From NCBI GenBank assembly GCA_005223125.1, contig NJBH01000004.1, positions 64,001 to 128,000 of the forward strand: 64,000 nucleotides of DNA, given 5' to 3'. Each line of letters starts with the position of its first letter. Position 1 is the stretch's first letter. The notes under the pieces are model-generated. The model ran no database searches. It saw only the letters and a list, made by a program, of their open reading frames with translations, and was not told the origin of the DNA. Shown piece by piece: positions 5,437 through 15,467 of this stretch. Position numbers and translations under genes: made by a program. The stretch is from Promethearchaeota archaeon Loki_b32 (GTDB taxonomy: Archaea > Asgardarchaeota > Lokiarchaeia > Sigyniarchaeales > SOKP01).

Positions 5437-8400
5437 TTAACTTTGAACTAAAAGTGCAGAAATCATAGCGTGAATTTGCTCAAAACCAAAATGTTTAATA
5501 ACTATTGTTGAGTTAGGGCATTGAGCACCACATGTACCACATCCTTTGCAAAGTGCAGGATTTATGTGGGATTTCAATATAGTCATTGTGAAATCTTCGA
5601 ACGTTCTTTCTTCCTCTATTAATTCTATAGCGTTAAATTGACAAACTTCAAGACAACTTCCACAACCAATGCAATTTTCTTCTATTACAACAGCTACAAG
5701 CCCAGATGTTACAAGTTTTTCAGCGCTTAAAATTTTTACTGCTTGGGCAGCAGCTCCATTGGATTGTGCTATTGATTCTCGAAGATCTTTAGGTGAATGT
5801 GCGCTCCCACATAAATATATACCATCTGTTGCAAAATCAATTGGTCTCAATTTAACATGAGCTTCCAAAAAGAATTTGTCCTCATTAAGTGGAACTTTTA
5901 ACATTTTTGCTAAATCTTCATTTTCTTTTATAGGTGCTACGAGACCTGTACTTAATACAATTAAATCAGGATTTATTTCAATTTCTCCTAAATCTGGATT
6001 GTTTACTATTATTTTTAATTGTTTATTTTTAATATTTAATTCTGGAGGTTTAGTTTCATCAAATCTTATGAAGATAACCTTTTTATCTCGTGCTAGGTTA
6101 TAATATTTTTCTTTAAAACCATATGTCCTAATATCACGATAAAGAATCACTATTTCTATTTTAGGATTGATTTCTTTTGCTTTTAACGCATTTTTAATGG
6201 CTTCTGAACAACAGATTCTGCTACAATATGGGTGATCTTCATTTCTGGATCCAACGCATTGAATCATAACTATTGATTTCACTCCTTTTACTTTATCTGT
6301 AGTAAAAAGATCTTTTTCAAATTCAGTTTGGGTTATAATTCTTTGGTCTTGTCCAAAATTGTATTCATTTGGTTGATATTCTTTTGCTCCAGTCGCTACA
6401 ACTATTATTCCAAGTTCAAGATCAACACTTTTGTTATTATTTCCGTAGTTTATATTTGTGGAAAAATTTCCAATATACCCTGATATTGAATTGATTTGAG
6501 CATTTTTAAATACTTGAATAAGTTGATTATTTTCAACATTTTTAATTAAATTTTTAAGATATTCCTGAATATTATCATTTTCAAGGGTCCGATAAAGATT
6601 TTTAGCAATTCCCCCTAGAGAATCTTCCTTTTCAATTAAGTAAACTTCATAACCTTGAGAAGCTAGATTTAATGCTGCTGACATTCCAGATACACCACCA
6701 CCTATAATCAAACCTTTATTTATTACAGCTATTTCTTGTTCCTGTAACGGGATTAATTGGCTAGCCTTTGCTACTGACATGCGCAATAAGTCTTTTGATT
6801 TTGCCGTTGCTTTTTCAGGTTCATGCATATGGACCCACGAACATTGATCTCGAATATTTACCATTTCAAATAGATATTTATTTAAACCAACTTCTCTTAT
6901 TGTCGCTTGAAATAAAGCTTCATGAGTTCTTGGAGTACATGATGCAACAATCACTCTATTCAGTTTGTTATTTTCTATTTTTTCTTTAATATTAGTTTGA
7001 GTATCTGCTGAACAGGTATATAAATTATGTTCGGCATAAACAACATTGGGTAAAGTTTTAACATATTCTACTACATTAGGAACATCAACAACCCCACCAA
7101 TATTTATTCCGCAGTGACATATAAATACTCCTATTCGCGGTGGTTGATCAGTTACATCCAATTCTTCGGGAAGTTCTTTCTTAGAGACTAATTTGTTTCT
7201 TGCTTCTGATAGAAGAACATTTACACATCCAGCAGCAGCACTAGCTTCAATAACAGTTTCTGGAATATCTTTAGGTGTTGCGAAAGACCCACAAACATAA
7301 ATCCCTGGTCTTGAAGTATCTACGGGAGTAAAAGTTTCAGTTTTACAAAACCCATATTCATTTAATTGGATATTTAATTTCTGTGCTAATTCTTTTGCTT
7401 GTTGATTAGGTTGCATTCCTACAGAAAGGACGACTAGATTAAAAAATTCTTCAATAATTTTTCCATTTCCTGTTTCATAATAAACTTTTAAATCTTTAGA
7501 GTCCGGAATTTCTTTAATAGAAGATATTCTGCGCCTGATATATCTTATTCCATACTCATCCTTTGCTCGTTCAATATATTTATCAAAATCTTTACCATAT
7601 GCTCTGATATCCATTGTAAAAATGGTTGGATCTATAATATTCATATGCTCTTTCGCTATAACTGCTTCTTTTGTAGTATACATACAACATACTGAAGAGC
7701 AATAATCATTACCCTGCTTTCTGTCCCTTGAACCAATACAATTTAAAAAGGCAATTTTTTTAGGAATAATTCCATCAGAAGGGCGAATTATTAAACCTGA
7801 GTGTGGTCCACTAGCACTTAGAATACGCTCAAATTCAATACTAGTGATTACATTTAGATATTTACCATAGCCGAATTGCTTTAAAGGGGTAGGATCGTAT
7901 TCATCAAACCCTATTGCTAATACTACAGCACCTACATTAAGGTTAATTTCTTTATTTTGAAGTTCATAATCTATAGCTTTTACTTTACATATTCCCTTAC
8001 ATATTCCACAACCTATACATTTGTCTTTGTCAATTGAAAACACTAATGGAACTGCCTGTGGAAATTTTACGGATATTGCTGCTATATTAGAAAGTTTCTC
8101 ATTAAAAAAATCTATAGCCTCTATTGGACATTGTTGAGCACACAAACCACATCCAGTACATTTATTTTGATCTAAACGAAGTGTTCTTTGAGTTAAATCA
8201 ACCTTAAAATTACCAGGTTCACCTTCAATTTTTTCTATTGAAGAATTAATTAAAATATCGATATTTTCATGTCGTCCAGTTTCTACTAATTTCGGGGCAA
8301 GAATACATATTGCACAGTCATTAGTTGGAAATGTTTTATCTAATTGAGACATAACTCCACCAATACTGGTTGTTGATTCTGCGAGATAAACTTTATAACC

Positions 8401-8478
8401 TGAATCTGCTAAATCTATAGAAGTTTGAATACCTGCAATTCCACCACCAATTACTAGAACAGCTCCGACTTTCTCCAT
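5437..8478 (-). CDS. hdrA: Large HdrA-like heterodisulfide reductase subunit A (fused modules), Cys form
   Basis: Two GGGxxG FAD motifs, DKTFPTNDC, CHCGINI, CTPRTHE, CVGSR and ferredoxin CxxCxxCxxxC motifs. Confidence 0.93.
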   Translation of the reverse strand: MEKVGAVLVIGGGIAGIQTSIDLADSGYKVYLAESTTSIGGVMSQLDKTFPTNDCAICILAPKLVETGRHENIDILINSSIEKIEGEPGNFKVDLTQRTLRLDQNKCTGCGLCAQQCPIEAIDFFNEKLSNIAAISVKFPQAVPLVFSIDKDKCIGCGICKGICKVKAIDYELQNKEINLNVGAVVLAIGFDEYDPTPLKQFGYGKYLNVITSIEFERILSASGPHSGLIIRPSDGIIPKKIAFLNCIGSRDRKQGNDYCSSVCCMYTTKEAVIAKEHMNIIDPTIFTMDIRAYGKDFDKYIERAKDEYGIRYIRRRISSIKEIPDSKDLKVYYETGNGKIIEEFFNLVVLSVGMQPNQQAKELAQKLNIQLNEYGFCKTETFTPVDTSRPGIYVCGSFATPKDIPETVIEASAAAGCVNVLLSEARNKLVSKKELPEELDVTDQPPRIGVFICHCGINIGGVVDVPNVVEYVKTLPNVVYAEHNLYTCSADTQTNIKEKIENNKLNRVIVASCTPRTHEALFQATIREVGLNKYLFEMVNIRDQCSWVHMHEPEKATAKSKDLLRMSVAKASQLIPLQEQEIAVINKGLIIGGGVSGMSAALNLASQGYEVYLIEKEDSLGGIAKNLYRTLENDNIQEYLKNLIKNVENNQLIQVFKNAQINSISGYIGNFSTNINYGNNNKSVDLELGIIVVATGAKEYQPNEYNFGQDQRIITQTEFEKDLFTTDKVKGVKSIVMIQCVGSRNEDHPYCSRICCSEAIKNALKAKEINPKIEIVILYRDIRTYGFKEKYYNLARDKKVIFIRFDETKPPELNIKNKQLKIIVNNPDLGEIEINPDLIVLSTGLVAPIKENEDLAKMLKVPLNEDKFFLEAHVKLRPIDFATDGIYLCGSAHSPKDLRESIAQSNGAAAQAVKILSAEKLVTSGLVAVVIEENCIGCGSCLEVCQFNAIELIEEERTFEDFTMTILKSHINPALCKGCGTCGAQCPNSTIVIKHFGFEQIHAMISALLVQS

Positions 8479-9755
8479 TACTTTCCCTCAACATTTTTAT
8501 TGGGTTCTATTATTTTTATCAGATCTACTAAAAACTCTGAAAAATCTAAAATTTCAATAGAAGAAAAGTCTTCATAGTCTTTTTTTAGACAATTTAGATG
8601 CATGCGACATTTTGGACAAGATGTAATCATTTTGGTTCCAACAGCTTTAGCTTCTAAAAGACGTTTATATCGCAATGCTTTAGACCGCTCATTACAATTC
8701 ATCCAAGAATTTACTCCACAACAATAAGAATTTTCTTTATTGTGTTCCATTTCTTTAAAATTATAACCAATAATTTTCAAATGCTTGAAGATTTCTCGGA
8801 CTTCCTCAATTATTTTATTATCCTTTGGTAAAAATCTACTTAACCTACAAGGGTCATGATAAGTAAAAGGAATAACCTCATCAGATTTATTAGGATTTTT
8901 AAATAGAACTTTTCCCTGCTTCCATTTATCAAAAATATATTCAATTATGTGTTTAACTTCAAATTTTTTATTAAACTCTTCAAACAGTTTTGGATAATCA
9001 ATTTTAAAGGTTCTATAACATTCAGCACAAGCAGTAACAATTGTTGTAGCTCCCGTTTCTTCAAACCGTTTAACATTTTTTTTTGCTAATTCAATAAAGC
9101 TTTCGAATTTTGCTTGACCCCAATATAAATCGTGTCCACAGCATATCTCATCTTTTAGAATCACTACCGGATCTTTTTCTAATTGACAAATAATCTTAAG
9201 TGTGCTTTCTGCTATAGATAATGAGTCTTCAAATTCATAGTTAAAAAAAGGTAAACATCCGACATAATATAAAATATTTCCCTTATCTGAAGTTTTACAT
9301 CCTTTTGGAATCCAATCTAAAGGTCTCTCAATTTCCATATTGTCTTGACTCATCATTTCTGACATCAAAGGATAAATACCTTTATGAGCAATAGAACGAT
9401 CAGGATTTTGAATATCTTTTAATCGCATTTTATATCTAGCAATTCTGACAATATCAGCAAAATTAATATCTTTAGGGCAATGTTCTAGGCAACTATTACA
9501 CATTAAACAATCCCATAATACCTGACTATTAATTATCTCATCTTCAAAGCCTTCTAATATCATTTGAATAATTCTACTAGGTGTAAATTTTTGAACCTTA
9601 CTGATTTGACATACACCCGAGCAACGGGCACATTGATAACACTTTTTTAGCAAATTAATTAAATCTGGTTCATAAATCTTTCTTAAGTATAAATTAGAAT
9701 CATTTTCTTCTTGTTTTACCTTTTTAAGATTTTCGATTTCAGTTATGAGATTCAC
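8478..9755 (-). CDS. HdrD/GlcF-like (Fe-S)-binding protein with CCG domains
   Basis: CYQCARCSGVC, CLMCNSCLEHCP, CCG, YHDPC, TSCPKC; its stop overlaps the hdrA start (TAATG). Confidence 0.88.
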   Translation of the reverse strand: MNLITEIENLKKVKQEENDSNLYLRKIYEPDLINLLKKCYQCARCSGVCQISKVQKFTPSRIIQMILEGFEDEIINSQVLWDCLMCNSCLEHCPKDINFADIVRIARYKMRLKDIQNPDRSIAHKGIYPLMSEMMSQDNMEIERPLDWIPKGCKTSDKGNILYYVGCLPFFNYEFEDSLSIAESTLKIICQLEKDPVVILKDEICCGHDLYWGQAKFESFIELAKKNVKRFEETGATTIVTACAECYRTFKIDYPKLFEEFNKKFEVKHIIEYIFDKWKQGKVLFKNPNKSDEVIPFTYHDPCRLSRFLPKDNKIIEEVREIFKHLKIIGYNFKEMEHNKENSYCCGVNSWMNCNERSKALRYKRLLEAKAVGTKMITSCPKCRMHLNCLKKDYEDFSSIEILDFSEFLVDLIKIIEPNKNVEGK

Positions 9756-9759
9756 TTCC

Positions 9760-10872
9760 TTATTTTAAGTTTTTCATGAATTCTTTTCTTCGTTCTATTT
9801 TTGATTCTGAAAATTTAGCTATTAGGGTTTTTATATTTCCTTTTGTATTTTCATCAAGTTTTAAGTTTTTAATAATGTTTTTATCTAATGCCTTCTGGAG
9901 TAACTGCCTACCTTTTTCAGTTCGGGGTATTACAGTAGTAAATCTATCTGGGGATCCAAGCCCTCCAAACGAAATATCTGAATAAATATTGGTAAAATCA
10001 ATACATGAATGACAAGCTGGGCGTATATAATTAACTAATTTATTAAAAGGAATATGGATTATCTTTTCTTTTGAGTCTTTATCTTCTAGCTTTAAAATTA
10101 AATCCTCCTTAATATTTATTTTTATAATATCTTCGAATTTTATCTTAAATTCTTTTTCAAATATCTCGATTTGAGATTTTTCAAATAGAAAATTGTGATA
10201 ACAGAATAAACCTAAACAAATCTCAACATGTTCTGAAGGGGTAACTCCTAAAGTCTGCATACATCTTATAGTATAAATTTGACAAGGTGTTCCCACAATT
10301 GCTAACTTTTTAAATTTATAATGACTTAATTGAGGAATTGAGGTTGTATAAGTGCTAAACCTTTGTATTTCATCTACTTGTGGAGATATATTTAAAATTG
10401 TACCCGATGCTTTAATTAGGTCGTCTTTATTCTCTGCCAACATAGCTTCTCGAGAAAATGGACTCTCAGCTTTAGAGACTATTGCTCCATCGATAATTTT
10501 ATTTTCTAATAAGAAATTTAAAAGTGTATTTACCACACCTCCATCTGTCCCATGTTTTAGAAATTCTTTATCCGTACTTTGACAAGAATAGAAATCTTCA
10601 GCAAATCCGTAAGGCATTGATTTAAAATCAGTGAATTGATATGTCTTATTAAGATCATCATCTAAAATATGTGTTTGAGGGCACAAGTAATAACATATAC
10701 CACATTCAAGGCATGCATCCTTATTTATATATTCAGGAGGGGATTTAGGCTCTTTAAAGCCTATTACATTCTCGAATGTTGCCGAACAGAAAGAAGTACA
10801 TCCACCACATTCTTGGCAGATCCCTTTTTCATGAACTTCCTTAATTAAATCTTGAAATGTTTTTATACTCAT
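9760..10872 (-). CDS. F420-reducing hydrogenase/dehydrogenase beta-subunit (FrhB/FdhB) family
   Basis: Ferredoxin motifs, DGGVV, VGTPCQ, GLFC, CxxCxDF, DISFG; start moved to ATG 10872 (MSIKTF) to avoid overlapping the upstream gene. Confidence 0.88.
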   Translation of the reverse strand: MSIKTFQDLIKEVHEKGICQECGGCTSFCSATFENVIGFKEPKSPPEYINKDACLECGICYYLCPQTHILDDDLNKTYQFTDFKSMPYGFAEDFYSCQSTDKEFLKHGTDGGVVNTLLNFLLENKIIDGAIVSKAESPFSREAMLAENKDDLIKASGTILNISPQVDEIQRFSTYTTSIPQLSHYKFKKLAIVGTPCQIYTIRCMQTLGVTPSEHVEICLGLFCYHNFLFEKSQIEIFEKEFKIKFEDIIKINIKEDLILKLEDKDSKEKIIHIPFNKLVNYIRPACHSCIDFTNIYSDISFGGLGSPDRFTTVIPRTEKGRQLLQKALDKNIIKNLKLDENTKGNIKTLIAKFSESKIERRKEFMKNLK

Positions 10873-10888
10873 ATTAATAATTTTTATA

Positions 10889-12385
10889 TTACTCCTTTTC
10901 CAATTTGATTGGTTTACAATTTTTTCTTTTGATACCAGCAATCCTTTCTAATAAGGGTTGCCCTGGTTTAACCTCCTTTAAGCTTTTAGATTCTATTAAA
11001 CCTGCTTTAATTGCCTCTTTATAGATTTTTTCACCTATTTTTGTTCTTGTTATTACTGATGACCAGCCACTAGGTGAACCTATTGATCCTACAGAAATAT
11101 CAGCAAAATCGGCTGTTAAATCTTCACAATAATGACAATTATGGCGAGCATAGGACTTAACTTCTTTTAAGGGTACTCTTAGGTCCTCACCAGAATCTAA
11201 GTATATAATGAATTTACCTCCACTTATGTCCATTTTTGTTACTTTATTAAAATCTTTTTGAAATTGTTCTTTAATTAAGTTAAGTACGCCCTCGTAAGGA
11301 AAAGATTCCATGCAGAAAAGTCCTATTCTATATTTGATATTTTTGAAAAATGGTAATCCACTCGGAAACAAAGTACCCTTTTCAATAGCATTCATTATAC
11401 ATGGAGTACCTACAACAGCTATTTTGTCATATTTCTTGGCTTTATCTATAATAGCTAAAGTAGATGCATTTGCATATTTAGTTCCCCCAGTCTTATATAA
11501 ATCTTTCAAATCATCCACAATGACGGGTTCAGGCTTCCATTTCTCTTCTGAGTGCTGTACTGCTACAATTGCGTCAACCAGTTTATTTTCTAATAAGTAT
11601 TGTAAAATGGATGTAACAACACCACCATCTTGTCTTACTTTTTTAATATCATCCTTAGTGGTGCTGGCAGAATAAGTATTGATATAACCATTAATTTTTT
11701 CTGAAAATTTTAAAGATTTATCAAGCTTATTTATACTTCTGCCCGCTTGCTCAATTGAAAATGATTTCGGGCAAACAGAATAACATATGCCGCATTTCAT
11801 ACAAGTTTCATCATCGATCTCCAAAATATCTGCTGTTACTGTAATTGCGTTTACAGGACAAATTGATGAGCACCAACCACATTGACAGCATACTTCAGAA
11901 TCAAACACAATAGAAACAGGTTCAAAAAAATGTTCAATGAAGTCATCAGGCAGATCTTTAACTTGATATCTATAGAAATATTCTTTTTCCTCGACTTTTT
12001 TTTCTTCTCCCTTTATTTTCTTGATAACAGTTTTAGTCTTTATTTCGATATGTTCTTCAATATATCCCTGTTCTTTAAGATAAATTACATCACGAATTAC
12101 ATTTTCTCTAGGAAACTCTTTTAGAATTTTTGCAATTTCCTCTAAAAATAATGGTTCCTTACCTTTTAATGATTCTAACACTAATTTACGCTCTGTTTCA
12201 GCATCGATCATAGCATCCAGAATTTCATAAAACTCCTCCTCAGAAAGTTTTCCTACACTTAGAATATCATTCTTTGCTTCGAAGAAAGCTCGAATTTGAA
12301 AATTCTCAACTGCTTTATAGGTTGCATCCATTAAATTTTTTGGAGATACTCCATTGAAATTTACATTGTTTGAAATTTGAACCAT
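10889..12385 (-). CDS. FrhB/FdhB-family protein with extra N-terminal (helical/wHTH-like) region
   Basis: CCQCGWCSSIC, QDGGVVT, VGTPC, GLFCME, CHYCEDLTADFADISVGSIG. Confidence 0.88.
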   Translation of the reverse strand: MVQISNNVNFNGVSPKNLMDATYKAVENFQIRAFFEAKNDILSVGKLSEEEFYEILDAMIDAETERKLVLESLKGKEPLFLEEIAKILKEFPRENVIRDVIYLKEQGYIEEHIEIKTKTVIKKIKGEEKKVEEKEYFYRYQVKDLPDDFIEHFFEPVSIVFDSEVCCQCGWCSSICPVNAITVTADILEIDDETCMKCGICYSVCPKSFSIEQAGRSINKLDKSLKFSEKINGYINTYSASTTKDDIKKVRQDGGVVTSILQYLLENKLVDAIVAVQHSEEKWKPEPVIVDDLKDLYKTGGTKYANASTLAIIDKAKKYDKIAVVGTPCIMNAIEKGTLFPSGLPFFKNIKYRIGLFCMESFPYEGVLNLIKEQFQKDFNKVTKMDISGGKFIIYLDSGEDLRVPLKEVKSYARHNCHYCEDLTADFADISVGSIGSPSGWSSVITRTKIGEKIYKEAIKAGLIESKSLKEVKPGQPLLERIAGIKRKNCKPIKLEKE

Positions 12386-12448
12386 ATTTACATCCTTTTG
12401 GATTACATTTTTTAAAAAATTTTATTTTTACTTGAATACTATTTAAAA

Positions 12449-12516
12449 ACCCCTTCCCTTGCGAGGTTGGTCTTCTTATAACTAGAATTTGTTTATAAGA
12501 ATCATTCCGTAGGGGT
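12449..12516 (-). promoter_or_regulatory. Eukaryote-like SECIS element (AUGA...GA kink-turn core)
   Basis: Minus strand: ACCCCU..GGA-AUGA-UUCUUAUAA-[ACAAAUUCUAG]-UUAUAAGAA-GA-CC..AGGGGU. Perfect 9-bp upper stem, adenosines in the loop, lower ACCCCU/AGGGGU helix; directly 3' of two UGA-containing genes. Confidence 0.8.
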
Positions 12517-12963
12517 AGTTATAACTTGTTTTGCTTCAACTTTCGATTTATCATCTACTAAGTTAAGTGGACTTGGTCCGGCTTTGCTAACCTTTTTGTA
12601 AGCGTCCTCAACAGATTCGACAAATTTCCCAGCATCTCCTCCACTTAACCAATACATATTTATTCTTTGATTTCCGAAACCTCTGGATTCTAAGATCCTA
12701 TTTGCTAAGTCTACATGTCTTTGAGCAGTGAAATTTCCGTTTTTAAATTGACACTCATTAGGTCGTCAACCAACAATCATGACACCATCAGCTCCCGCGC
12801 GAATGCTATATAAAATGTGCTTAATGTCAATTCTTCCAGTACATCTTACTTTGATAATTTTTACTGCAGGAGTGTATTTCATTCGAGAAACCCCAGCTAA
12901 ATCCGCCGCGCTATATCCTCATTTTATGCAAGCAAAAACGATTAAATTATAAGTATTTTCCAT
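12502..12963 (-). CDS. mvhD: Selenocysteine-containing MvhD/VhuD (153 aa; Sec UGA at 12919-12921 and 12766-12768)
   Basis: Manual translation: MENTYNLIVFACIK-U-GYSAADLAGVSR...VRCTGRID...ADGVMIVG-U-RPNECQF...WLSGGDAGKF. Both UGAs align with Cys in the paralog at 4985-5416 (CNWC, GCHIGDC). Confidence 0.92.
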
Positions 12964-12969
12964 GTTTTT

Positions 12970-15008
12970 TTAACCACCTCCTAAAAGACCATCAATTTCA
13001 GCGAATAATTGGTGATCTCGATAATATCTGATGTCAATTGCTTGAGTAGGACAACAAGTAGCACAAATACCGCAACCGTCACAATTTATTTCATCAATAA
13101 ACGCTCCGATATCTTCTTCAATTCTAATAGCATTTTTAGGACATTCTTTTTCACATCGTCTACATGAAATGCAGAATTCACTATCTACTTCAGCAGTAAT
13201 AAGTTCAATATCAATTTCTCCTGGTGATGTTACTTCAGCAACTTTACTAGCCGCAGCTCTAGCTTGAGAAACGGAGTAAGAAATATTTTTCGGTCCTTGA
13301 GCAAATCCAGCAATAAAAATTCCTTTTGCCTTTGTTTCTTGTGGCATTAAACCGAAATGTGATTCTGTAAGAAAGCCATATATATTAGTATCAAGATTTA
13401 ATACCTTTACAATCTGTTCAGTACCTTTTGAAGGAAGTGCTGCTGTAGATAAAACGACTAAATCAGCATCAATTTTTACAATCTTATCTGTTAATGACGA
13501 ATATACACGAACTTTCACGTTTTTGGTTTCGGGATCTTCAGAGATTTCACCGACTTTTCCACGAATCATTCTGATACCTGCATCTTTAGCTCGTTCGTAG
13601 TATTCTTCAAATCCTTTTTCAGGAGTTCTTATGTCAATATAGCAAATAGTAATGTTCGCATCGGGAAATTCTTCGAGCAATAAGCGTCCATTTTTTAGAG
13701 CAAGCATACAGCATACACCACTACAATAGGTTCGTTCAGTTTCTCGACTTCCTACGCATTGTATAAATACAATTTCTTTGGGTTGTTTATTATCTGAAAG
13801 CCGGTGTACATGTCCTTCAAGTGGTCCATTCGGAGCTAGTATTCGTTCTAATTGAACTTGAGTTATAACATTTTCGAATTCTCCATACCCATATTCACCA
13901 AAAGGTTCATGTATGTCCCAACCAGTTGTTATAATGATCGTACCAACTTCGATATTGACTTCCATAGGTACTTGACTAAAATCAATGGCATCTAATTCAC
14001 AGGCATCTACACATGAGAAACATTCAACACAAGCATCTCGGTCAATATCATATAAAAACGGTACTGCTTGACCAAATGGTATATCAATTGCTCTTCGAGC
14101 TCCTAAATGTTCATCGAAATAATTACTTACATATACGGGGCAAACCTCACTGCATGCACCACACCCATTGCATTCGTCTGTTGTATATCGCGGTTTTTTT
14201 TCAATTGTTACGTTATAATTACCAACATAACCCTCGATTTTTTTGACTTCACTATAGGTTAATAATTCAATGTTCTCATTTCTGTTGATATTTAGCATAA
14301 CAGGACCGCAGATTCATATTGCACAATCATCAGTGGGAAAAGTTCTGTCCAATTGAGCCATTCGTCCTCCGATTGTCGTTTTCTGTTCGACTAAGTAAAC
14401 TTTTATACCTTGGTTGGCAAGATCGAGCGCGGCATTCATTCCAGCTATACCCCCACCGACGATTAAAGTGGCCTTCTTAACTGGAACAGTCTTAATAGGA
14501 ATGGGTTCTAAAAGTTTAGCTCTTTCAATACCGCTTTTTACTAATGTTTTTGCTTTTTCTGTAGCCTCTTCTTTACTATCCGTGCACCAATTTTGCATTG
14601 AGCAGTAAATCTGCTTAAAAAAAATCTGCAATGTTCACGGACGTTAACCATCTGAAAGTAATAAGGATTTAAATCTGTTTTAGCAATTGTACCCCGGTAA
14701 ATCACTTCATGCGTACGCGGTGTTCAAGCTGATGCCACAATCCTATTTAAACCTTTTTCCTTGATATCTTCTATTATCTCATTTTGAGCGTTATCAGTTC
14801 ATAGAAAAGCGTTTTTCTTAGAAATTACAATATCATCAAAATTTTTGGTTGCAAACTCTACGAGCTCGTCGCAATCAACCTTAGAACGGATATTAATCCC
14901 TCATTTGCCAAAAACAAGGAAATCATACTTTTTTTGGCAGGCATAATATCCAATCCTTAGCTGTTCATTATCTTTATTAATCTTCGTATCATTCCATTGA
15001 CTATTCAT
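12970..15008 (-). CDS. hdrA: Selenoprotein HdrA (~657 aa after splicing): join(15008-14934, 14903-14626, 14590-12970); Sec UGA at 14901, 14799, 14724, 14314
   Basis: Manual translation: RIGYYACQ-U-GINI, AFL-U-TDNAQ, ASA-U-TPRTHE, VREHCSWCTD, PTDDCAI-U-ICGP. Each U aligns with Cys in both Cys-form paralogs here. Removing 30+35 nt gives a 1974-nt frame of typical HdrA length. Confidence 0.88.
14591..14625 (-). other. Putative 35-nt BHB-type (tRNA-endonuclease) mRNA intron 2 in hdrA
   Basis: UUGC/GCAA central helix, bulges AG^A and AA^U, outer CCGUG/CACGG helix, inner AGCAG/CUGCU hairpin. Excision gives CAT TGC AGT TGG (HCSW) and repairs the frame. Confidence 0.8.
14904..14933 (-). other. Putative 30-nt BHB-type mRNA intron 1 in hdrA
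   Basis: UGCC/GGCA central helix, bulges AA^A and AA^U, A/U intron stem, outer GAUAUUA/UAAUAUC helix. Excision gives TGC CAA TGA GGG (C-Q-U-G), matching CHCG. Confidence 0.75.
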
Positions 15009-15467
15009 TTTTTTCCCTCTTTCTTTTTTTCCACCTCTTATTTTTGTGACAATTCAACACTTATTTATGCGCAATAGTAAACATACTTACTGATATATAC
15101 AGTAGTGTAAAAATCTCTATGATAGCATAAATTTTGTAAATTAATATTATATCATTTAGATTTTATTCTTTTTAATATTTTTATTTCTTACTATTTATCT
15201 ATGTAAGCAAATTTTAGGATTGTGATTATAGATTCAAACCAAATTTTATCTTTATGAAAATTTAAGAACAAGAAATTTCGATAAGCATTAGGAAAAAAAG
15301 GGAGAATTGATTATTTTTGCACATTTTAATGAGAAAATTTGAGTTCATTATAAAAAAGAAAATATAAATTTAAATAAATTATAAGAAAAAAAAATTTAAA
15401 TAAAAATCAGATAATAATCTTACCATTAGAAATTTCATTGAATAAAATGTCTTAAAGATGTGAGAAT

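Follow-up and report, generated by a model that had tools for sequence, protein, structure and literature searches.

How does a message whose coding sequence is interrupted by two short inserts, one of them ending exactly at a selenocysteine (Sec) codon, come to encode an intact protein, and is there any bond between that junction and the decoding of UGA? Both questions are raised by the Sec-HdrA gene hdrA, which occupies 15008-12970 on the minus strand of the window (the whole 64-kb stretch of DNA analyzed here, 30% GC) in a Lokiarchaeia-type genome of 4.13 Mb that is 95.5% complete, with mvhD directly downstream. We consider it very probable that the inserts are two short BHB introns in a coding mRNA, cut by EndA and joined by RtcB, that they are passengers unrelated to each other, and that the Sec codon represents a conserved-motif landing site. 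A single message in a prokaryote closely related to eukaryotes would then require two endonuclease splices and four UGA recodings, with RNA supporting both splices.

The hdrA locus and the architecture of its inserts

Excision of 14933-14904 and 14625-14591 yields an HdrA of 657 aa with TGA at codons 26, 60, 85 and 210 (Table 1). Codon 26 is TGA in nearly all of 150 orthologous Sec-hdrA loci, and the N-terminal part of the protein matches a solved HdrA (5odc_A 12-101, E 6e-21). Cys24, Sec26 and Cys117 are presumably ligands of the N-terminal [4Fe-4S] cluster HA3/A3, as we take them to be in the HdrA structure of Wagner from 2017. The part of PMC13518236 available to us places cluster A3 in HdrA's N-terminal domain and gives no residue numbers there; Loki Sec sites have been called non-ligands, under a four-cluster model (PMC4989117).

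The locus resembles the multi-Sec HdrA-VhuD pair with one lokiSECIS (PMC4989117, PMC11227280): there are four in-frame UGA codons in hdrA and two in mvhD, and in both systems one AUGA-GA SECIS follows mvhD. Judged from sequence, the features of Loki multi-Sec HdrA are all present, including UGA at conserved Cys positions, a SECIS after vhuD, and Sec machinery, and the genome holds a tRNA-Sec with UCA anticodon. The SECIS-like hairpin 3' of mvhD, whose pattern is that of PMC4989117, is the predicted common Sec signal for hdrA-mvhD, although it lies ~2.4 kb downstream; an Rfam search that included it returned no match. Unlike hdrA here, the published pair has no reported coding-region intron (PMC4989117, PMC11227280), and the word 'intron' is absent from PMC11227280. 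The same cluster of the window (5437-8478) also contains a Cys-type HdrA-domain protein of 1013 aa, whose 120-aa domain is 87-98% identical across the genus and free of inserts.

Table 1. Features of the hdrA-mvhD locus (window positions) and BHB-type inserts in other protein genes of the genome (contig and strand-wise offset)
Feature	Position	Strand	Remarks
hdrA exon 1 (Met1-Gln25)	14934..15008	-	orthologues read YYACQ-U-G without a gap
Cys24 codon (TGC)	14939-14937	-	within BHB 1 central helix
Intron 1, 30 nt, phase 0, BHB type	14904..14933	-	absent from RNA run X15, present in DNA run X8
Intron 1 bulges	14935-14933 and 14905-14903	-	
BHB 1 central helix	14939-14936 with 14909-14906	-	
First Sec codon U26 (TGA)	14901..14903	-	its U is base 1 of exon 2
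BHB 1 exon-exon outer helix, 9 bp	14887..14952	-	14952-14944 with 14895-14887
hdrA exon 2	14626..14903	-	U26, U60 (14801-14799), U85 (14726-14724), Cys117 (14630-14628)
Intron 2, 35 nt, phase 2, frame-breaking, BHB type	14591..14625	-	skipped in RNA; 34-35-nt versions in relatives
Intron 2 central helix	14631-14628 with 14596-14593	-	
Intron 2 outer helix	14642-14636 with 14584-14578	-	
hdrA exon 3	12970..14590	-	contains U210 (14316-14314)
mvhD/vhuD	12502..12963	-	two in-frame TGA, intron-free
SECIS-like hairpin 3' of mvhD	12471..12505	-	AUGA, 9-bp stem, A-rich loop, GA
E2	C30, 11079	+	mRNA insert
cdhD	C45, 47177	+	mRNA insert
Zinc ribbon	C24, 174990	+	mRNA insert
MBL hydrolase	C64, 35432	-	mRNA insert
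Unnamed gene	C4, 12750	-	mRNA insert
Aldolase-like	C32, 26480	-	mRNA insert
Small GTPase	C63, 17589	+	mRNA insert
radA	C33, 1017	+	mRNA insert
EF-2 paralogue	C3, 75803	+	mRNA insert
gyrB	C56, 2572	-	mRNA insert

Reading along the minus strand, Cys24 (TGC) and Gln25 (CAA) are followed by the 30-nt insert (14933-14904) and then by TGA (14903-14901). The fold around this insert (BHB 1) has a central helix UGCC/GGCA of four Watson-Crick pairs, flanked by the bulges AA^A and AA^U. The second bulge ends in a U that is also the first base of UGA. Two readings of the initial annotation are plainly present in the sequence and its translation: this U is the third nucleotide of the 3' bulge, so that the cut falls directly before the Sec codon, and the insert is in frame, with KKYDFLVFGK as its unspliced reading. 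From sequence alone the cut is ambiguous by 2 nt, since shifts of -2, -1 and 0 give an identical product; only shift 0 provides the full 4-bp central helix. In BHB 2 the helix is UUGC/GCAA (4/4 Watson-Crick pairs), the bulges are AG^A and AA^U, and the junction is unique, 2 nt after the TGC of Cys117. The homology-defined junctions of both introns thus coincide exactly with four of four central pairs and A-first bulges, which is beyond chance. The TGC before each cut, the TGC in each helix and the GCA end had been listed as shared traits; all are in the sequence, but they are not three independent likenesses, because exon bases -6 to -3 form the central helix of a BHB, so that a TGC 2-3 nt before the cut lies in the helix and forces a GCA intron end.

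Folding was significant around intron 1 (z = -4.8, 91-nt region) and was not around intron 2 (z = -0.6 to -1.5). The strict BHB 1 conformer is predicted to lie 5.7 kcal/mol above a slipped hairpin (-18.8 vs -24.5 kcal/mol), and splicing may therefore be incomplete. Both flanking helices are present in intron 1. Intron 2 has the outer helix, its inner helix being detached here and adjacent in relatives, and BHB 2 here has no pair beside its 5' bulge; as modeled, it is a relaxed form of the motif. The inserts are not assembly errors, since an independent metagenome contig (L132) carries both and contigs of DNA run X8 cross both without gaps.

Removal from RNA and distribution among relatives

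Metatranscriptome and DNA contigs were placed on window positions 8400-15200; these are assembled contigs, not raw reads, and the RNA and DNA samples differ. Intron 2 is missing from RNA contigs in three runs of two studies, and intron 1 in one run. The RNA contigs of X15 and X17 skip 14591-14625 at an unambiguous position (joint 14590-14626), with 255 and 150 bases, respectively, on the shorter side of the joint, and an RNA contig of X19, from the second study, has a loose end past 14590 with the 13 bases of 14626-14638. A gap-free X8 DNA contig spans 14398-14775 and has variants 14482 and 14684 in common with the X15 and X17 RNA contigs. The X15 contig also omits 30 nt at 14904 (position ambiguous by 2 nt), and another X8 DNA contig crosses 14746-15168 without a gap, keeping intron 1. 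RNA support for intron 1 consists of this one X15 contig, from a strain whose DNA is not among the data. Around the junction this contig has flanks like those of carriers, with at most two unlisted differences in the whole piece; of the 36 bases that flank the junctions, at least 5 differ from the present allele in every one of the 80 intron-less alleles. Precise removal of both inserts as BHB introns, as initially proposed, is borne out by these data: the RNA contigs lack exactly these bases and DNA run X8 keeps them. Both inserts look like real, RNA-supported BHB introns that are spliced at the predicted sites.

The X15 allele contains a coherent diverged tract at 14832-14887, within exon 2 (~80% identity), which is absent from X8 and suggests intragenic recombination between relatives. 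The change at 14887 converts an outer-helix U-G pair into U-A.

We compared 150 Sec-hdrA loci, 100 of them distinct in the N-terminal part. Mapped across these orthologues, BHB inserts occupy four hdrA sites, at codons 26 (the source genome, L132, L133, L141 and L166), 29 (L234), 112 (39 nt; L017/L139/L242) and 118 (34-35 nt), and they occur independently, introns 1 and 2 being found singly as well as together across lineages. All four sites fall within the first 120 of 657 codons, with coverage of 134-149 loci up to codon 560, and those at codons 29 and 112 are separated by 10 and 19 nt from the sites used in the source genome, so that the four make up two close pairs. About 140 orthologous loci are without intron 1, both inserts are absent from 15 same-genus orthologues among those listed, and a narrow site-26 pattern matched only the source genome among 154 genomes.

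What is conserved is the fold and not the 10-aa peptide, in line with the initial annotation. Intron 1 versions give three different peptide readings, and that of L133 opens with an in-frame TAA. Around intron 1, 94.8% of cells of the BHB structure are paired (vs 38-49% when the structure is slid) and two pairs are changed on both sides; a shuffle control on five rows only was not significant (174/500). Relatives retain three to four of the four central pairs, and at the intron 2 site of L020 the Cys codon TGT is accompanied by an ACA intron end, a case of compensation. Synonymous flank codons of carriers build the exon-exon helix: all site-118 carriers (7/7) use AGT and ACG, found in 4/77 and 2/77 intron-less alleles, and 4/4 carriers use TAT and TGC, found in 6/80 and 11/80, though kin are not independent in either comparison. 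On the gene tree (genus g28 loci and short rows excluded) carriers are scattered among intron-less neighbors, a pattern that would fit either recurrent precise loss or dissemination on short tracts of recombination. The sharing of flanks among scattered carriers resembles co-conversion and also fits repeated loss. With ~150 orthologous loci and four intron sites that come and go together with flanking codons, Sec-hdrA offers a test case for the gain, synonymous fixation and loss of coding introns without a spliceosome.

In the mechanism we favor, exon bases -6 to -3 would pair with the intron 3' end in the precursor, the tRNA splicing endonuclease (EndA) would cleave each bulge 3' of its second base, and RtcB would join the exons into Cys-Gln-Sec-Gly and Cys-Ser-Trp. 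We infer these catalysts from the presence of their genes, two of the EndA family and one RtcB. Sec incorporation would then rely, like that of relatives without introns, on the distant SECIS 3' of mvhD. The two introns would be unrelated passengers, two of at least four that reached the first 120 hdrA codons across the genus; they would be kept in invariant motifs, which put up with nothing but precise excision or precise loss, and would move or vanish with short flanking tracts by recombination. Left unspliced, intron 2 would truncate the protein and intron 1 would lengthen C-x-U by ten residues, so exact removal would be enforced. Homing introns were rejected as an explanation for inserts of 30 and 35 nt with no ORF and no encoded endonuclease.

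The junction at the selenocysteine codon

The reading of the Sec codon as a conserved-motif landing site must be weighed against the view that introns, otherwise real, land or are retained by preference at Sec codons or in selenoprotein mRNAs, for example by way of ribosomes stalling at UGA, or that the splice gates or tunes Sec insertion. We judge this unlikely. Three intron sites lie 7 nt or less from a first Sec codon: codon 26 of hdrA (0 nt before the UGA), codon 29 of hdrA in L234 (7 nt after it), and a Sec-type mvhD (L323, G281:C13) with a BHB-like insert of 30 nt whose end is 1 nt short of the first UGA. However, one of the three is the very observation that was selected, a single near-Sec site among the three other hdrA sites has a 16% chance, and sites 112 and 118 are distant from any UGA. 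Moreover, intron 1 is missing from most orthologous loci, no intron adjoins the other three UGAs of hdrA, and none was found at the first motif in the two other Sec-hdrA genes of the source genome, in both Sec-mvhD genes (that of hdrA included) or in Cys paralogues. The two other Sec-type hdrA genes (C36+16934 and C50+16899) have no inserts at their C-x-U or REHC motifs.

Comparison with Cys-type genes speaks for a Sec preference. There are 3-4 Cys copies for each Sec copy, and no insert was seen in their C-x-C or C-N-W-C motifs: pattern searches for inserts, covering 400 genomes for Cys-type mvhD and 98 for Cys-type hdrA, produced false positives only. Pattern matches L322, L324, L325 and L326-L336 were discarded as unrelated or as intact motifs, those outside hdrA were judged chance from the matched text, without alignment, and a partial Cys-type match in G098 is a contig end. 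The best 150 Cys-type domain matches in the genus, 146 of them complete copies, had no insert. With the source genome left out, Sec-type copies carry introns in 2/28 cases and complete Cys-type copies in 0/146 (Fisher p 0.025), but kin are not independent, ranked match lists can drop split copies, and the value is p 0.23 against the single best-matched Cys orthologue group. Both carriers behind the 2/28 have their introns at codons 112 and 118, not near any UGA. That Sec-type genes seem to show introns where Cys paralogues show none is a weak hint; motif conservation alone does not explain this excess, which counts against the passenger view, yet it may reflect the gene (e.g., its expression level) and not the codon.

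Splicing also places the UGA of carriers in a hairpin loop, since the outer helix of BHB 1 persists after splicing. Around U26, 73 intron-less alleles fold at -5.05 kcal/mol, vs -5.47 kcal/mol for synonymous randomizations, and spliced carriers at -13.3 kcal/mol; folding of intron-less alleles revealed no hairpin at U26 or at sites 112/118. The helix therefore belongs to the intron and not to recoding, and a Sec redefinition element or UGA-proximal recoding hairpin was rejected, there being no conserved structure at the UGA of intron-less orthologues. The more general proposition, that Asgard BHB mini-introns prefer Sec codons or selenoprotein mRNAs and that tRNA-type splicing is mechanistically tied to UGA recoding (for example by intron capture at a ribosome-stalled UGA, or by a post-splicing hairpin that alters Sec insertion), we regard as quite unlikely. 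Were a Sec-codon excess true, translation stalls would be the suggested route of intron gain, a question that is open even for tRNA introns.

Intron origins and comparable systems

Ten further BHB-type inserts of 29-53 nt reside in unrelated protein genes of the genome, mostly in conserved motifs (Table 1). The catalogue stems from comparison with homologous sequence of relatives that were sampled (G006, 1.6 Mb; G024, 0.4 Mb) together with individually checked candidates, antisense mirror matches being discarded. In the eight introns compared with orthologues, at least 12 of 14 flanking residues are identical, vs 39% of background windows, though detection favors conserved flanks. Genome-wide de novo scans for BHB motifs with ORF rescue did not separate from frame-shifted controls; a tuned scan gave a rough excess of ~25 at one threshold. 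At C45:44216, comparison with G006 shows an in-frame insert of 30 nt with a poor BHB; it may be an ordinary indel or a degenerate intron and was not included. The gyrB insert is the longest (53 nt) and might be two nested introns.

These inserts bear on the view that the two hdrA introns have a common origin, target TGC alike or descend from a tRNA intron, which is very improbable. Both follow a TGC and have similar ends, as the initial annotation had stressed, but beyond the forced ends their inner parts are no more similar than shuffles (z -0.1 to -0.3), and they are distributed separately on the tree; intron 1, by comparison, shows clear homology to the versions in L133 and L141 (z 6.4 and 5.2). 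None of the ten other mRNA introns and neither of the two other hdrA sites (29 and 112) follows a Cys codon. Given a Cys-codon background of 3.3% (two codons before the cut), 0/12 is what is expected without preference, and the MBL-gene intron has an identical GCA end that comes from an out-of-frame TGC. Shared origin and Cys targeting are rejected. The proposed comparison with tRNA introns of the genome singled out no donor: the best match to intron 1, the D-arm intron of tRNA-Thr, is identical at 22/30 positions, but ~30 genome windows reach 22/30 or better and the versions of relatives fit tRNA-Thr less well, so this candidate was dismissed.

Extremely improbable is the notion that the 10 aa of intron 1 are translated, that ribosomes frameshift past intron 2 and that strains without introns gave rise to the RNA contigs. 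In its favor, the present insert 1 keeps the frame and has no stop, a U-run occurs in insert 2, most alleles are intron-less and the tract of X15 looks recombinant, but the stop in L133, the variants common to RNA and intron-bearing DNA contigs and the carrier-type flanks of X15 all speak against it, and a programmed -1 frameshift was rejected since intron 2 versions of 34 or 35 nt fit no single frameshift and lack the U-run in L020, L145 and L152.

Short BHB introns spliced from hdrA by tRNA-type enzymes would not be the first in archaeal messages. An intron in the cbf5 pre-mRNA of Crenarchaeota was reportedly described by Watanabe in 2002. The cbf5 intron splits a catalytic Asp codon (PMC2738675), and, as in hdrA, it is a short coding-sequence BHB intron in an essential motif, cut after the second bulge base (Yokobori 2009, PMC2738675). 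It is likewise known in in-frame cases (33 and 39 nt), with a variable interior and patchy gain and loss. Unlike cbf5, hdrA belongs to an Asgard archaeon, has two introns per mRNA and is accompanied by at least ten other intron genes in the genome; its message requires both splicing and UGA recoding, with a junction at a Sec codon. The 5' UTR BHB intron of Haloferax HVO_1309 (PMC7714728) is also an EndA substrate in an mRNA, as hdrA would be, but it lies in an untranslated region with no frame or codon at stake. In the literature searched, which was that outside subscription papers, the only record of BHB splicing in a coding region is cbf5, to which the Haloferax 5' UTR case is added.

Non-canonical tRNA introns of Asgard archaea (bioRxiv 10.64898/2026.10.13.758758) share with those of hdrA a length of ~30 nt, BHB boundaries and a motif half of which comes from the exon; the hdrA introns differ in residing in mRNA, and no sequence donor for them stood out among the tRNAs of the genome. 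According to that preprint, tRNA introns were gained repeatedly by a route that is an open question, and a term search of it found no mention of mRNA. Many tRNAs of the present genome carry 28-31-nt BHB introns; automatic tRNA intron calls are rough and were excluded from statistics. ARAGORN recovered only 23 tRNAs, several of them miscalled, because many have ~30-nt introns at non-canonical positions. The tRNA-Sec (UCA; C57 minus ~10080-10240) is among the tRNAs with BHB introns: one insert of ~30 nt lies in its D arm and another in its T loop. The latter, an intron already published (PMC4989117), is absent in the sampled relative.
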